From Podarcis liolepis (Eukaryota), in assembly GCA_965112155.1 (NCBI GenBank), contig OZ218100.1: a stretch of DNA of 64,000 bases. One strand, 5' to 3'. Positions 7,297 through 38,296 of this stretch are shown piece after piece; position 1 is the stretch's first letter; every line of letters starts with the position of its first letter. The translations under genes were made by a program, and so were the position numbers. The notes beneath the pieces are model-generated. The model did no database searches, was not told the DNA's origin, and worked only from the letters and a program-made list of their open reading frames with translations.

Positions 7297-7608
7297 GAGC
7301 CAGCATGGTGTAGTGGTCAAGAGCGGTAGACTCGTAATCTGGTGAACTGGGTTCGTGTCTCTGCTCCTCCACATGCAGCTGCTGGGTGACCTTGGGCCAG
7401 TCACACTTCTCTGAAGTCTCTCAGCCCCACTCACCCCACAGAGTGTTTGTTGTGGGGGAGGAAGGGAAAGGAGAATGTTGGCCGCTTTGAGACTCCTTAG
7501 GGTAGTGATAAAGTGGCATATCAAATCCAAACTAAAACTACTACTACTACTACTCTTCTTCTTCTTCTTCTTCTTCTTCTTCTTCTTCTTCTTCTTCTTC
7601 TTCTTCTT
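7297..7608 (+). mobile_element. tRNA-derived SINE (Squam3-like) with (CTA)n(CTT)n tail
   Basis: A box TGGTGTAGTGG, B box GGTTCGTGTCT, CORE-like GGGTGACCTTGGGC, microsatellite tail; closely similar inverted copy at 25022-25304. Confidence 0.85.
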
Positions 7609-7679
7609 GAAATCATTTCAATTATTCTATCCACACACCACATTGAATCCACATTTGTTTATGAATTGTTGCTTATATC

Positions 7680-8059
7680 TGTTGAATGGTTTCTTTAAAT
7701 GTAAAGGTTCATCATTGTTCCACTCCATGTGTATGTCTTTAAGGGGCCGGAGCAAGGGCCAGAGCAAGATAACGAGACCCAGCTTTACAGCTGTGAAACA
7801 TAGCAGGTGCTGCTGAGTTGTATTTGATTAAGGTGTGTCAGCATTTGGGTAGAGTATATAAGGAGCAGCACCTAGCTCTCCCATAACCCTGGGGGATGGG
7901 TTGGTGGTTGGGTCATGTTGGTTTGTTAATATATTTAGTGTAAATGGAGTTTTTGTTTTTCTTATTAAAACCTTTAAGTTATTTTTGAGTCCTTTCTTTT
8001 TAATGCATGATCTCCCCAGCAAGCTCTCTGCAGCGTCACTATACTGCAAAAAGCCAACA
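7680..8059 (+). repeat. 5' LTR (380 bp)
   Basis: TGTTG...CAACA terminal inverted repeat; TATATAA 7855-7861; ATTAAA 7964-7969; no differences from the 3' LTR by eye. Confidence 0.97.
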
Positions 8060-8064
8060 TCTTT

Positions 8065-8079
8065 GGTTATGGGCCCAGC
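8065..8079 (+). promoter_or_regulatory. Primer binding site for internal (half) tRNAiMet
   Basis: GGTTATGGGCCCAGC is the reverse complement of GCTGGGCCCATAACC in the initiator tRNA-Met anticodon arm, as in Drosophila copia. Confidence 0.9.
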
Positions 8080-8176
8080 TGCTGAGTGGATGACTGCATA
8101 TTTTTGGACTCTGAGAAAGGTTTGAAAACTCCTTCTCTTGTTAGCGTAGTTTTTGTGGGTCTGGAAGAGTTCCAGA

Positions 8177-8941
8177 ATGGTTGACCGGGTTCCTGAAGCT
8201 GAGAAGGCTCTGGTCTTCCCACAGCTAACAGATGAGAACTATAGTTTATGGTCTTTTCGGGTGGGGGCGCTTTTGACCTCTAGAGAAGTATGGACCTATG
8301 TAACTGATGACCCTCCTGACCCTGTAACTAATGCTTGGTCGAAAGGAGATGCAAAAGCCAGGGCGATAATTAATTTGGCAGTCAGCGACCAGCAAGTAGT
8401 CTATATAAGAAATAAGAAAACTGCCAAAGAAATGTGGGACAGTCTTGCAGCAGTGCATGTTAGAAAAGAGTCAGCATCTGCATTGACGTTTTTCAAGCAG
8501 TTGTACCAGACGAAGTTGCAGCCTGGTGGTGATTTGGCAGCACACTTGAGACGTCTGGAGGCAATACGCTGCGAATTAATTCGAAGGGACATGGAGATAC
8601 CTGATATTCAGTATGTTTTTATCATTCTATGTTCCCTTAATGAGGACTTTGATGGTATAGCTAGCCAGATATCTGCCGTTCCACCAGCACAATTAACTGT
8701 GGAAGGGGTAACGGCAAGATTAATGGGTGAGTTGGATAGAAGGGAGGCTTGTGCCATAAGCACTCCTGTTTCCAGAAAGAATGAGGAACGCCATATGCAA
8801 ACGTGTGGTGATACAACTGCATTTAAAGCTGCAAAGCGTTGTTGGTTCTGCAATAAGCAAGGACATTTTGCAAGGGACTGCAGATCCAAAAGAAAGCAAA
8901 GTACTCCCAAGCCTGTTTCTGTTCGTCAATCACGGTCGTAA
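8177..8941 (+). CDS. gag: Copia Gag
   Basis: ATG at 8177; LTDENYSLWSFRV N-terminal motif, TAKEMWDSL (UBN2/gag_2-like), zinc knuckle CWFCNKQGHFARDC. Confidence 0.92.
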   Translation: MVDRVPEAEKALVFPQLTDENYSLWSFRVGALLTSREVWTYVTDDPPDPVTNAWSKGDAKARAIINLAVSDQQVVYIRNKKTAKEMWDSLAAVHVRKESASALTFFKQLYQTKLQPGGDLAAHLRRLEAIRCELIRRDMEIPDIQYVFIILCSLNEDFDGIASQISAVPPAQLTVEGVTARLMGELDRREACAISTPVSRKNEERHMQTCGDTTAFKAAKRCWFCNKQGHFARDCRSKRKQSTPKPVSVRQSRS

Positions 8942-11023
8942 GCCCAGCAGCCGGCATCGTATAGTAGAGACAGAAACGAGCCGCGAGCTTTTCACGCTCG
9001 TTCTAAAGATCGTAAAAGAATTAAAGATGCCAGGTGGAAGTCTTTTGTTATCGACTCAGGAGCATCGCAAAATATCTGCAATGATCGAAGCTTGTTTATT
9101 TCTTTCGAAGAGGAAATTGGTAATGTACATTTAGCCAATTCACAAGTCTTGCAGTCGCTTGGCAGGGGTACTGTTAAACTTGACTCTTTAAACATTACAA
9201 TAGCGAACTGCATTTACTGCCCGTCAGTGGACAATTTATTGTCAGTAAGGTGTTTTGCTCGTCAAGGCATAACTGTGCGTTTCTTAAAGTCAATGTGTGA
9301 GTTTTTCGAGGGGAACAAACGTCTATTGTATGCCCGGGAATCTGATGGTTTATATAGACTGTATTTTCGCACTTACTCCCAATCGCATATAAATTGCAGA
9401 GCAGCACAGTTAAGCCAGGGGTTGAGGAATGTAAGACCACATTCTGGGTGTGTCCACATGGCGCACAGAATTCTGGGACACCTGAATTTTGCTGATGTAA
9501 TTAAGACAAAGAATATTGTCAATGGCCTCAACTTAAAACCATGCAAATTCTTTATGCAGTGTCTATCCTGTTGCAAGAATAAGATTAAGGTTGCACGAAA
9601 GGGTAGGTGCTCAGATAGAAAAGTAACTGAGCCATTTGAGCGTGTACATTGTGATTTAGTTGGGCCACTCCCACCATCATTAGGAGGTTCTAAGTACTGG
9701 CTTACTCTGATAGACCAGTATAGTAGATATTGTTGGACTTATGCAATAGCTGAGAAGTCCCAAGCATTTGAAAAGTACAAGGTTTTTTGCAACTGGGTAA
9801 AAACACACTTTAACAAACCAATTAAGAACCTGTTTTCTGACCGGGGTGGGGAATTTGTTTCTGAAGATTTTGAGAAATTCCTGGAAGCGCAGGGGACCAC
9901 TCATGAGTTATCTTGCCCCCGAAGTCCCTGGCAAAATGGGCTTGTTGAAGTTGTGCAGCGTGACTTGCAGGCTGGGGTTAAAACTTATCTGCACGATGCT
10001 AATCTGCCCAAAGTCTTTTGGGCTGAAGCACTCAATGCCTTTTGTTATGTTAGAAATCACAGTTATCATTCTGGTTTAGATGTCACCCCCTATGAGAAGC
10101 TGTTTAAAAAACGCCCTAATCTGAAATACCTACGCATTTGGGGTTCAGATGTAATTATGCATTATCCTGCTAAGCAGAAATTGGGTGAATGTAGTGTACA
10201 GGGGAAATTAATGGGCTACCAGCAGGGGGCGTACAGAATTTACATACCAGCAACTGGCAAATTTCATATTACCAGAAGCATGATACAAACTGTAAATTGG
10301 AATGGGGTTGCTGTTTTCCAAGATACTGATGGTATAAATGATACTGAGGAAGAAGAGGAAGCAGCAGCAGCAGCAGGAGGAAATGGTGATTCTGAATTAA
10401 TAGAAAAAGACAAAAAGCCTGTTGAATCTGATAATTTGTTTGACTTAAAGTCACAGGCATCTGAGGGGAGGTTAGATTCTCTTGAGTTTTCTGACCGTGA
10501 GCTTAGCCTACAGGCACCTCTTCAGTCTGACAATGATGATTTACAACCTGAAACTAGTAGTTCACTTAGTCCCATTAAGTCTGAGGAGTCTGACTCTCCT
10601 TCCGGACTGAGACGTTCAGATAGAAAGAGGCAGAAGCCACAACGTTTTGCAGATGAACATTTTAATACTGTGTATGCCAATAAGGCGGTTTTTGAACCAA
10701 AAAGCTACAGTGACGTTCAGAATTTACCTATGCACCAAGCTGTAAATTGGTATAAAGCTATGAACTCTGAGATAGCTTCTTTAAAAGAGCATAACACTTG
10801 GTCTCTTGTACCACAAACCCCAGATATGAGACTTATTGATTCAAAATGGGTTTATAGAGTTAAAATGAATGACAAAAATGAAGTTGTAAGGTACAAGGCA
10901 AGACTAGTTGCTAGGGGCTTTCAACAAATTCCAGGTGAAGATTATGATCAGTGTTATTCACTAAGTGTAAAAAAAAAAAAAAAAAAAAATGAAACAGTTA
11001 AGCTTTTGTTAAAAGATGCATAA
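8942..11023 (+). pseudogene. pol: Copia Pol: protease, integrase and N-terminal RT (truncated)
   Basis: Same frame as gag, open from 8942; FVIDSGAS protease; H-RILGH..C..C; CDLVGP / SDRGGEF / QNGLVE (DDE); KWVYRVK, YKARLVARGFQQ; ends before the QxDV, YGLKQ and YVDD motifs. Confidence 0.92.
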
Positions 11024-11609
11024 ATATGTGGAAAAGCCCACTATGCAATGTTTCTCTGCTCTTAAGAGAGTGGTAATGTACCTTAAACATACCAAACATT
11101 ATAGGTTGCAGTTTACACCCAGTATTGATAAAGGTTTTGAAATTTTCTGCGATGCATCTCATGCAGTGGAACAAAATAATTGCAGGGGTGTGTCTGGTAT
11201 GGTGTTTTGTTATAACGGTTGTCCATTTGAATGGAAGTCCCAGACACAAACCATTATTTGTCTCTCCACAACAGAGAGTGAATTATGTGCATGTGTTCAA
11301 GCCACTCGTGATGTAGAATGGTATCTGCAAGTATTTGCAGACCTACAGATGCAAGTAACACTACCAGTAAAAGTTTACCTTGATTCCCAGAGTGGACTTG
11401 CTATCCTGTGTTCAGAGACCAATACGCAGCGCACTAGAGTCTTAAGATTACGTTTAGAATTTGTAAAGAAACTAATTGCTGAGGAAATGGTTGTATTTAA
11501 ATATGTTCCAGGTGATAGTCAAATTGCAGACATTTTTACTAAAGCACTTCCAAAGGTTACACATGAAAAACATGTACAAAGTATGCTTTATGTTTTTGTT
11601 TCACAATGA
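11016..11609 (+). pseudogene. pol: Copia RT C-terminus plus RNase H (out of frame after deletion)
   Basis: ALKRVVMYLKHT, FCDASHA, STTESE, YLDSQS, QIADIFTKAL motifs. Confidence 0.92.
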
Positions 11610-11615
11610 TGAACC

Positions 11616-11625
11616 GCAGGGGAAA
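11616..11625 (+). promoter_or_regulatory. Polypurine tract
   Basis: GCAGGGGAAA abutting the 3' LTR. Confidence 0.8.
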
Positions 11626-12005
11626 TGTTGAATGGTTTCTTTAAATGTAAAGGTTCATCATTGTTCCACTCCATGTGTATGTCTTTAAGGGGCCGGAGCA
11701 AGGGCCAGAGCAAGATAACGAGACCCAGCTTTACAGCTGTGAAACATAGCAGGTGCTGCTGAGTTGTATTTGATTAAGGTGTGTCAGCATTTGGGTAGAG
11801 TATATAAGGAGCAGCACCTAGCTCTCCCATAACCCTGGGGGATGGGTTGGTGGTTGGGTCATGTTGGTTTGTTAATATATTTAGTGTAAATGGAGTTTTT
11901 GTTTTTCTTATTAAAACCTTTAAGTTATTTTTGAGTCCTTTCTTTTTAATGCATGATCTCCCCAGCAAGCTCTCTGCAGCGTCACTATACTGCAAAAAGC
12001 CAACA
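11626..12005 (+). repeat. 3' LTR (380 bp)
   Basis: Direct repeat of 7680-8059. Confidence 0.97.
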
Positions 12006-12325
12006 ATATCATGCAACCAATGTTTATTTCATTTCTTTCTCTATTTTAAATATGTCTGTTATGGCAAAGTCCTCCCAAGGTTGCTTGTGTGGATAATAAA
12101 ATGAGCTGGGCATGGGGACCAAAAGGGCAGGATATCAAAGTTAATAGAAATAAATAAAATAAGTAATATATAAAAATTGTAACACCTCATTACAATAAAA
12201 CTAAAACAGGCATCTAAAAGCATTACACTTCTACAAAACCAATTTAGTTTTGTTTGTTTTTTTAACCCAGCAGCAATGTGAAATAGTGGGAAATGCATAG
12301 TGCATTATAGGAGCCTTACCTAAAC

Positions 12326-12426
12326 TGGTGCTATCCAGATGTTTTGGACTACAACTTCCTCCATCTCTGACCATTGACTATGCTGGCTGGGGCTGATGGG
12401 AGTTGTAGTCCAAAACTCCTGGAGGC
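12326..12426. mobile_element. Short fold-back MITE (GGACTACAACTCCCA family)
   Basis: TTTTGGACTACAACT ... AGTTGTAGTCCAAAA inverted arms; related copies at 17033, 54037, 58141. Confidence 0.7.
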
Positions 12427-19181: not shown

Positions 19182-19692
19182 TGTTGTTTAGTCGTTTAGT
19201 CGTGTCCGACTCTTCGTGACCCCATGGACCAGAGCACGCCAGGCACTCCTGTCTTCCACTGCCTCCCGCAGCCTGGTCAAACTCATGCTGGTAGCTTCGA
19301 GAACACTGTCCAACCATCTTACCCTCTGTCGTCCCCTTCTCCTTGTGCCCTCAATCTTTCCCAACATCAGGGTCTTTTCCAGGGAGTCTTCTCTACTCAT
19401 GAGGTGGCCAAAGTACTGGAGCGTCAGCTTCAGGATCTGTCCTTCCAGTGAGCACTCAGGGCTGATTTCCTTCAGAATGGAGAGGTTTGATCTTCTTGCA
19501 GTCCATGGGACTCTCAAGAGTCTTCTCCAGCACCATAATTCAAAAGCACCAATTCTTCGGCAATCAGCCTTCTTTATGGTCCTGCTCTCACTTCCATACA
19601 TCACTACTGGGAAAACCATAGCTTTTACTATACGGACCTTTGTTGGCAAGGAGATGTCTCTTCTTTTTAAGATGCTGTCTAGGTTTGTCATT
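19182..19692 (-). mobile_element. Bov-B (RTE) LINE 3' fragment
   Basis: ORF TKVRIVKAMVFPVVMYGSES..FELWCWRRLLRVPWTARRSN..WRALVHGVTKSRTRLND; 12-bp TSD GTAACTGGGCTT (19170-19181 / 19693-19704). Confidence 0.95.
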
Positions 19693-19737
19693 GTAACTGG
19701 GCTTATATTGATTATAAGCACTGATTACAAAATATAC

Positions 19738-37480: not shown

Positions 37481-38296
37481 TTAAGTGTCTGGCAGGGCAG
37501 GTCCACCTCCTTCTTTAGCATCCATCAATATCTTAAGTTTTACTCGAGGCTTCCTGCCCTGCCAAACCAATCCAGAAACATCCCTCTGCCACCTCCTGAA
37601 ACAATCCCTCCCATCCAAAACTTGCACTTTTTGACACAAAAGCAACATCCCCGGCAACACAGCAACCCTCATCCCCACCACAACAGCTCGGCCCAACCAT
37701 AACAACTTCAGATTTGTCCATATTTCCCAATCCCCCTTCTCTTCAATCCAACGTCCTTCACAGTTGCCCTTAAGTAAATTCACATTTTTGGCGGTCCTAC
37801 TGACCCCCAAAAATCTCTCTTTCTCAGCCGATGTTGATCCTGTCTCCTCCTGAAGCTCTGTCAAACTTTCCTTTCCCAGTTCTGGTGGGGTTCTGATCCT
37901 CAAATTCATCTGTTTTTCTTTAAGCTCCATCATAGCAAATATCAGCCTATGTTCGTCAAGTTGCTTTTGAATGTATGGGGCTCTCTCACACTCCAATTGT
38001 GTTGTTTTACATTCAGCAGCAAAGGTTTTCTCCCTGACTTCATCCGCAGTTTGCCGTATTAAAGTAGATTCCTGTGTCAATTTCTGGATGGTTTCTGTGT
38101 TGGTGTTCACCTTTTGTCCCAGATTATTTAAACTTTCTACAATTAAATCAATTTTATTATTTGCAGCGTCCGCTTTCACATTCATCACTTCTGTTTTCTT
38201 GTGAAGCTGTTCCAGCGAGTCATTTATTTTCAATAATGCGACCACTCAGGCCTCTCCTGTTGACATTTCATCTGTTCTTTCCTTTCCATTTGCCAT
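37481..38296 (-). pseudogene. L1 ORF1p-like (coiled coil and start of RRM)
   Basis: ATG at 38296 in frame with track ORF 38245 via one TGA; heptad-rich region then LKEKQMNLRIRTPPEL (NLRIxGxPE-like). Confidence 0.7.

Follow-up and report, generated by a model that had tools for sequence, protein, structure and literature searches.

What does a retrotransposon that lacks the core of its reverse transcriptase (RT), yet carries two identical LTRs, say about how it was copied? Such an element lies at positions 7680–12005 of a 64,000-nt window, the whole stretch of Podarcis liolepis DNA analysed here (contig OZ218100.1, assembly GCA_965112155.1). We conclude, with a probability of roughly 0.87, that it belongs to a large RT-less subfamily within a young Ty1/copia family of lizards, in which the same 644 bp are gone from copy after copy, and that this subfamily is likely copied in trans by the RT of intact sister elements, likely in shared particles with recombination between RNAs. 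It would then likely be a known kind of freeloading element, neither a one-off accident nor a recent import.

Structure of the element at 7680–12005

All features lie on the plus strand. The 5′ LTR (7680–8059) and 3′ LTR (11626–12005) end in TG...CA and show no differences over 380 bp, with a perfect 5-bp TSD, ATATC, at 7675–7679 and 12006–12010, as originally predicted. A copia-type PBS at 8065–8078, which we take to be of the initiator-tRNA half-molecule kind, is identical in RT-bearing and deleted copies of the family, and the polypurine tract (PPT) at 11616–11625 and the LTR are likewise common to both classes. Gag, with a zinc knuckle (8177–8941; PF14223, PF00098), terminates at an in-frame stop, 8939–8941, that separates it from pol and is private to this copy among 113 compared. 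Protease, integrase core and an SH3-like domain follow in the gag frame at 8942–11023 (PF22936, PF00665, PF25597), and the end of this segment, in the same frame, encodes the N-terminal quarter of RT. The RVT_2 profile (PF07727) matches here at positions 2–60 of 244 only, against 2–243 of 244 in an RT-bearing copy, and no YVDD is present. Within the RT remnant is a run of 21 A (10969–10989), also private among the 113 copies, which may reflect slippage or a sequencing error. Beyond the deletion junction, the orphaned RT C-terminus and RNase H occupy an open frame of 198 codons (11013–11609) that is out of the pol frame; the missing RT core and the frame change were thus both correctly read from the start.

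The TG...CA LTRs, 5-bp TSD, PBS and PPT, together with the domain order gag-PR-IN-RT-RNase H and a copia-type RT (PF07727), place the family in Ty1/copia, although the RNase H Pfam match is weak even in an RT-bearing copy (E=0.005, under the Pfam cut-off). The copy at 7680–12005 has neither a complete RT with YVDD nor a single open polyprotein frame, and so is not an autonomous element. Its RNase H frame, used as a query, found no match in the PDB; Pfam named no family for two other ORFs of the window, in which no tRNA genes were found.

The same deletion recurs across the genome

The junction is real, but it lies within 11022–11032, not at ~11016–11020 as first placed. The gap measures 644 bp in all 58 aligned deleted copies, and the direct repeat at both of its edges is (T)GTGGA, at 11027–11032, which replaces the TGCA microhomology initially suggested. 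At least two junction types share this 644-bp register, and the junction letters of the copy at 7680–12005 are unique among the 58. A splice origin of the deletions was considered and ruled out, the edges being short direct repeats and not GT-AG. YVDD occurs in 55 of 55 RT-bearing copies and in none of the 58 deleted ones. YG[LI][KR]Q is missing from the RT-bearing copies as well, so that among the motifs whose absence had been remarked upon only YVDD is diagnostic of the RT core.

Exact matches to the deletion junction were found at 110 loci on many contigs (control, 0), and 29 more deleted copies carry variant junctions, giving at least 139 in total. The RT-intact boundary has 90 exact matches, for a young family of about 250 copies. 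For alignment we used 113 copies, 58 deleted and 55 RT-bearing, and examined 31 further deleted copies besides; of 60 junction loci, 3 with a single LTR were left out, as were 5 of the 60 hits for RNase H, which were truncated, in tandem or had just one LTR. The RT-bearing copies with YVDD have mostly a single open frame of about 1360 codons, and the autonomous copia family predicted for this genome is therefore present. A search of the genome with PF07727 returned at least 150 loci as candidate helpers, but the 30 examined are members of two different copia families, with ~30% identity, and no helpers of this one.

Perfect TSDs flank 49 of the 58 aligned deleted copies, with different TSDs at different loci, and 25 of the 31 further ones; LTRs are identical in 39 and 22, respectively. 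The corresponding figures for the 55 RT-bearing copies are 50 and 42, in a sample picked for long open frames, which biases comparisons of age as well as of selection. Identical LTR pairs are therefore the family norm (81/113), one such 380-bp pair limits divergence merely to <0.8%, and assembly polishing could inflate the share of identical pairs. The insertion had been called very recent; the identity of its LTRs holds, but it does not set this copy apart, and such identity gives an age for the insertion but none for the lesion.

The 644-bp joint is present in DNA contigs from three of four other runs under other species labels (organisms A, B and D), and contigs of organism C have loose ends that match it. 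The joint is therefore real and older than the insertion at 7680–12005. RNase H joints, described below, also occur in DNA contigs of organisms B and D. RNA reads of organism A map to one strand of the family and cover the RT core as well; the 644-bp joint was seen in none of four RNA runs at a raw-read depth of about 1–20, and a sequence-index search listed no RNA holder. The genome thus contains one lesion at many loci, each with its own TSD, beside an autonomous partner with shared cis signals, as is characteristic of an internal-deletion derivative, and this supports the proposal that a defective genome was mobilised in trans.

Deleted and intact copies share one pool

Copies differ on average by 2.5%, and their LTRs by 3.2%. 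Between deleted and intact copies, Fst is −0.0002 over 8060–10800 (p=0.53) and 0.011 in the LTR (p=0.023), rising to 0.080 at 10900–11026 and 0.345 at 11027–11118 (both p=0.001). Alleles at 11044–11045 are linked to the deletion (r2 0.38 and 0.52), that at 11045 being carried by 47 of 58 deleted and 5 of 55 intact copies. All four gametes with the deletion were found at 164 of 165 common SNPs, and r2 between SNPs declines to 1/n by 200–400 bp. As there is no differentiation except in the ~100 bp beside the junction, the deletion behaves as an allele of one recombining pool. On the integrase tree the deleted/intact label requires 32 changes, and in none of 200 bootstrap trees (0%) does it form a single group; it is slightly clustered (37.8 changes when shuffled, with 14 of 500 shuffles as low), a point that the bootstrap did not settle.

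Structural variants cross the two classes as well. One in-frame deletion at the end of gag occurs in both, in 6 intact and 5 deleted copies, but the flanks of its carriers are not significantly closer (P 0.08–0.21) and it may be recurrent. Three copies keep RT and have an RNase H deletion. In a few copies the two LTRs are discordant, with 10–20 differences. Four of the 113 aligned copies share one extra base in an A-run of integrase; this was considered as proof of inherited integrase-dead genomes and rejected, its carriers having no common local haplotype (P 0.63–0.77), and its likely source is repeated slippage or an error of sequencing. The frame of two further copies ends at that codon number as well.

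Judging by the junction-linked alleles, the four gametes, Fst and the decay of r2, mobilisation in trans is likely, and the pool likely arises by co-packaging and template switching. A single old deletion at a short repeat would have founded the deleted lineage, whose RNA would retain the PBS, PPT and packaging signals, be packaged with intact RNA and be served by RT from intact sister copies. Template switching would then refresh gag-PR-IN of the deleted genomes from the intact pool; because of this renewal, only the junction and the nearest ~100 bp would keep their own history and decay.

Probable decay of the deleted lineage

The RT remnant carries private non-synonymous and synonymous variants at 49:20 in deleted and 9:18 in intact copies (p=0.001; the intact sample being biased to open frames), which points to relaxed selection on the remnant once RT is lost. 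A second deletion, in RNase H, is present in 37 of the 58 deleted copies. It removes about 420–440 bp, roughly 11118–11560, and has four junction types; RNase H was lost at least three separate times. The gag-PR-IN frame, by comparison, is open in 69 of 89 deleted copies. For variants common only to deleted copies, pN/pS is 0.21 in gag-IN, against 0.53 for the RT remnant (p=0.09), a signal that recombination with intact copies gives as well. In deleted copies the singletons are non-synonymous to a greater degree than in the open-frame-biased intact ones (0.59 vs 0.38, p=0.02).

A more speculative reading, which we consider unlikely, is that selection trims the RT-less form to a Gag-protease-integrase-only genome that is a partner and not a freeloader, supplying proteins or needing translation in cis, and held as a balanced allele through several lizard speciations. 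Its basis is the order of losses, RT and then RNase H at least three times, with no large loss upstream. It contrasts with the model of a family driven to extinction by its defective copies; such outcompeting and extinction of helpers was simulated for cattle ERVK (PMC10924933).

Alternative origins and relatives

The original prediction allowed that the deletion was made by template switching in the last replication of this element, and the unique junction letters and the private 21-A run, itself a possible sequencing error, would suit either such an origin at this one locus or an assembly artefact. Against both stand the 110 exact junctions on many contigs, with different TSDs, and the joint in independent DNA runs of other species labels; with at least 139 deleted copies, a lesion confined to this locus has practically no chance of being correct. 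The deletion might instead be a hot spot, each deleted copy being made afresh from intact RNA by a jump at (T)GTGGA and dead on arrival, with no lineage. The repeat of 5–6 bases at both gap ends and the two or more junction types in one register fit this, and fresh generation likewise predicts an Fst near 0. It does not, however, account for alleles beside the junction that are sharply unlike those of the intact pool, for common junction variants that recur across many deleted copies or for the non-synonymous variants gathered by the RT remnant, and the RNase H deletion, nearly confined to RT-deleted copies, would every time have to arise in the very same round. The hot spot is largely refuted by the linked alleles and nested deletions, and we hold it to be very improbable. 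Mobilisation in trans could also be combined with mixing by ectopic gene conversion between genomic copies in place of co-packaging: about 250 copies at this mean divergence are possible partners, short LD blocks match short tracts, and the few discordant LTR pairs agree with it. Yet most copies have an identical LTR pair although LTRs differ between copies, so that the mosaics were fixed before insertion, and for Ty1 and ONSEN recombination during reverse transcription has been documented (PMC6894440). Gene conversion as the source of mixing is thus improbable, and co-packaging remains our preferred account.

That the parent family was recently acquired from a non-squamate had also been proposed. 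The family is young and shares ~30% identity with two further copia families in this genome, and PMC11889832 does not decide whether tetrapod copia was acquired horizontally. The best named protein matches among the candidates scored are, however, pieces of the same family from Podarcis lilfordi (87–90%), with a Podarcis muralis sister family at 45% also among the best. The closest full-length RT-RNase H relative among those candidates (38%) clusters with a P. lilfordi protein, and the best integrase-core representative reaches 45%. No match labelled as non-lizard exceeded about 45% in these incomplete searches, and this absence is weak evidence because two of the three word-index searches scored only the best ~8000 candidates and annotation of TE proteins is poor. 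Within the same scope, no distant taxon gave a much closer match than host divergence allows. With other Podarcis copia families as the nearest proteins, horizontal transfer is unsupported, and we rate it as a low-probability explanation. The premise that copia is uncommon in amniotes finds no support here: PMC11889832 reports copia in 23 of 24 squamate genomes, and for Lepidosauria Mtanga only. One P. lilfordi protein skips the RT core at a different place, and no exact form of that skip occurred in the 78 of 4030 candidates scored.

Relation to known systems

Non-autonomous deletion derivatives are well known, cattle ERVK C/D and mouse IAP 1delta1 among them, so a single copy is ordinary. 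In searches confined to printed, mostly non-subscription literature, we did not find one described for vertebrate copia, nor any publication about a lizard copia subfamily with such a deletion. As a natural record the family is exceptionally clean: its roughly 250 young copies comprise four structural haplotypes and recombine almost freely, and the same junctions turn up under the labels of several related species. It allows a test in a wild vertebrate of whether defective copies extinguish their helpers or persist at a stable ratio, and of whether an RT-less genome retains gag-PR-IN for a cis or cooperative role. RT-based surveys overlook more than half of such a family.

Published systems are compared here as the cited sections describe them. 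The closest parallel is cattle ERVK[2-1-LTR] (PMC10924933), where a defective majority stands beside competent copies, trans-complementation was inferred, and C and D types recombine on four-haplotype evidence with type LD only by the boundary. Those are ERVs with env, however, and D has a replaced 2.7-kb core and no ORFs, whereas the lizard family is Ty1/copia with a clean 644-bp RT deletion, gag-PR-IN open in most deleted copies and a junction found under several species labels. In IAP 1delta1 (PMC6466679) one internal deletion was likewise amplified, with proteins needed in trans and a long frame kept, but there the product is a gag-pol fusion in frame, for which a role in cis has been shown, while the lizard deletion shifts the frame after integrase. 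BARE2, RLC_Angela and RLG_Sabrina/WHAM (PMC9744471) share partial coding capacity and co-evolution with an autonomous partner; they lack gag (BARE2) or RT and integrase and are diverged families, whereas the lizard element keeps integrase and its classes are undiverged. The ‘clans’ of Ty1 and ONSEN/COPIA78 (PMC6894440) are copia too, and their new copies are built as mosaics from intact as well as defective members, although these come from induced bursts in yeast and Arabidopsis and the lizard pattern is read from about 150 standing copies. HERV-K(HML-2) type 1 (PMC4379556) has a fixed-length internal deletion (292 bp) common to its defective contingent; unlike the lizard deletion, it removes the pol-env boundary, creates a splice donor and leaves RT in place.

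Structure of the window copy

The element at 7680-12005 belongs to Ty1/copia and, as a type, to the non-autonomous deletion derivatives. As the original prediction had stated, its 380-bp LTRs are identical (0 differences) and a perfect TSD, ATATC, stands on either flank. The interior holds three frames: a gag frame with PF14223 and a zinc knuckle, a pol frame with protease, integrase, SH3 and only positions 2-60 of the 244-position RT profile, and an orphaned RT-end/RNase H frame. The RT loss and frame shift had been described correctly, while an in-frame stop (8939-8941) and a 21-A run (10969-10989), both private to this copy among 113 aligned copies, had been overlooked.

Just upstream of the insertion, at 7400-7610, lies a retroposon-like 3' end with an ACT/TCT microsatellite tail, and downstream a 26-bp inverted repeat (12334-12423); we take both to be probably common squamate repeats. 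Two minus-strand frames of the window lack Pfam matches: one of 178 codons (19188-19724), which in our estimation resembles a BovB/RTE LINE C-terminus, and one of 254 codons with a coiled-coil look (37481-38245), which we presume could be a LINE ORF1 remnant.

The deletion recurs across the genome

Among 308 candidates from a DNA search of the genome, all 40 that were scored span the junction left by the 644-bp RT-core deletion (within 11022-11032 in the window copy), and 30/30 fetched loci share an identical layout. The exact junction pattern occurs at 110 genomic places, the reversed-pattern control at 0, the undeleted RT boundary at 90 and the RNase H junction pattern at 90. The RNase H frame as query gave 150 scored matches, many within open frames of ~1360 codons. 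From the 99 other junction loci listed we retrieved 60, together with 60 RNase H matches selected mostly for long frames, and aligned the 113 copies with two clean LTRs, window copy included.

Three main classes emerged, with PBS and PPT common to all: 55 copies bear RT (~4955 bp; YVDD in 55/55), 21, like the window copy, lack the 644 bp (~4315 bp), and 37 have lost a further 422-440 bp of RNase H (~3890 bp). Among 35 unassigned RNase H-junction loci, the RT core is missing as well in 31 and present in 2; the remaining two are a truncated copy and one with a larger deletion. As 29 of the 31 escape the exact junction pattern, the number of copies without the RT core comes to at least 139. Both the recurrence of an identical deletion at other loci and the existence of intact copies, on which the original prediction turned, were thereby borne out.

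Five extra loci yielded a third RT-bearing, RNase H-deleted copy; these three (L194, L203, L216) form a rare fourth haplotype with identical LTRs. At locus L212 a TSD-flanked copy of 2.5 kb has lost the greater part of the stretch from integrase to RNase H and carries a short junction motif in duplicate. At L140:523-5901, on contig C20 of this genome, an RT-bearing copy continues through an LTR that both share into the rearranged start of a doubly deleted neighbour, forming a tandem array.

A probably inherited deletion in a recombining pool

Copies differ on average by 2.5% internally and 3.2% in the LTRs, and deleted and intact copies are barely differentiated: Fst was -0.0002 over 8060-10800 (p=0.53) and 0.011 in the LTRs (p=0.023). 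Differentiation increased close to the junction, with an Fst of 0.080 over the preceding 126 bp and 0.345 over the following 92 bp. Nearly all common SNPs (164/165) passed the four-gamete test with the deletion, and linkage disequilibrium between SNPs decayed to background within 200-400 bp in deleted and intact copies alike. On the integrase tree, whose bootstrap was not settled, the deleted label required 32 changes versus 37.8 when shuffled, with 14/500 shuffles as low. The nearest neighbour of the window copy varies by region, being an intact copy for LTR and for integrase.

An Fst of zero, taken alone, would also be compatible with a deletion made afresh each time at a hot spot. However, deleted copies typically carry particular alleles 15-20 bp away from the junction (47/58 vs 5/55 intact), the RT remnant is under relaxed selection (private N:S 49:20 deleted vs 9:18 intact, p=0.001), and the RNase H deletions are nested within the first. 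These points favour an inherited lineage over a hot spot. The two LTRs of a copy being identical, its mosaic structure must have existed before it inserted, from which we infer template switching between co-packaged deleted and intact RNAs, a mechanism reviewed in PMC6894440.

The missing 644 bp are bounded by (T)GTGGA, inside a longer imperfect repeat, rather than by the TGCA microhomology originally suggested; two common junction types share the same 644-bp register. Four sequence types can be told apart among the RNase H deletions, located at three short repeats. We regard slippage of the template at such repeats, in the course of reverse transcription, as the likely origin of the deletions. 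A splice origin was rejected, as no junction of either deletion carries splice ends.

Retained frames and age

Gag-PR-IN is open in 47/58 aligned and 22/31 further deleted copies; the window copy's frame stops after gag. Upstream of RT, the 58 deleted copies have no gaps ≥30 bp except an in-frame one that intact copies carry too. Variants present in more than one copy, all of them deleted, are mostly synonymous in gag-IN (14 N, 19 S) but not in the RT remnant (13 N, 6 S; p=0.09), a pattern that a protein contribution by deleted copies might leave but that renewal by recombination would explain equally well. Singleton pN/pS was 0.59 in deleted vs 0.38 in intact copies (p=0.02), the intact sample being biased.

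Perfect TSDs flank 50/55 intact vs 49/58 deleted aligned copies, and LTR pairs are identical in 42/55 vs 39/58; for the further deleted copies the counts are 25/31 and 22/31. Pooled LTR divergence is 0.18% (99 TSD-flanked copies). One identical pair limits divergence only to <0.8%, or about 2 million years at an assumed 2e-9 per site and year. We consider the family young and probably still mobile, the window copy being a typical member rather than an exception.

Independent sequencing runs

The element stretch is present in twenty runs under five species labels. With an RT-bearing copy as reference, DNA contigs from four runs (organisms A-D) contained the 644-bp joint in A, B and D, both its loose ends in C, and RNase H joints of 424 and 441 in B and D. 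Because the joint occurs in independent DNA runs, the deletion is real and older than those species boundaries, or crossed them, possibly by introgression. In organism A the family is transcribed: RNA reads map to it, RT core included, mostly from one strand. The 644-bp joint was absent among the RNA joints listed.

Relatives and comparisons

No close relatives outside lizards emerged from three word-index searches, two of them scoring the top ~8000 candidates, or from one HMMER search. Among named proteins the nearest are pieces from Podarcis lilfordi (87-90%), which makes a wall lizard the likely host; long proteins matched at 31%, or locally up to 36%. The best full RT-RNase H match reached 38%, in a cluster including a P. 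lilfordi protein; a P. muralis sister family and the best, unnamed integrase representative each reached 45%. The possible horizontal acquisition proposed originally is unsupported as a recent transfer, the best relatives being Podarcis copia. Its premise that copia is uncommon in amniotes is not supported for squamates: PMC11889832 reports copia in 23/24 squamates, which hold 66% of all copia copies detected there, with 1004 sequences in P. muralis. For Lepidosauria it lists no clade but Mtanga, and it allows for an ancient transfer.

The deleted/intact pair probably works like cattle ERVK C/D (PMC10924933) and the deleted copies like IAP 1delta1 (PMC6466679), and they resemble plant semi-autonomous elements (PMC9744471) and HERV-K type 1 (PMC4379556). 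No account of this RT-deleted copia subfamily turned up among the papers listed in literature searches; its value lies in recording cleanly, and across species, the persistence of a defective allele within a population of recombining elements.

P. lilfordi protein CAI5776558.1 (P0185), annotated as 'effector 161-like', represents a fragment of this family in which ~200 RT residues are skipped in frame, at a short repeat, by a gap different from the 644-bp deletion. An older copy (L180:3357-5468, about 94%) has a similar gap with an identical right end; matches of equal score occur at six places, several of them contig ends, and may represent an additional, older RT-less lineage dispersed through duplication of subtelomeric regions. 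Sixteen P. lilfordi gene models (P0187, P0188, P0352-P0365), one of them labelled 'mas-related G-protein coupled receptor member H-like', are misannotated parts of the gag-pol of this family.

Young copia activity in this lizard is widespread: the genome holds 2808 RT candidates, and loci L031-L060 represent two or more further copia families in which open frames of 1338 and 1413 codons are frequent. The 40-Mb contig C20 is densely populated with copia matches from several families and may be the lacertid W chromosome.
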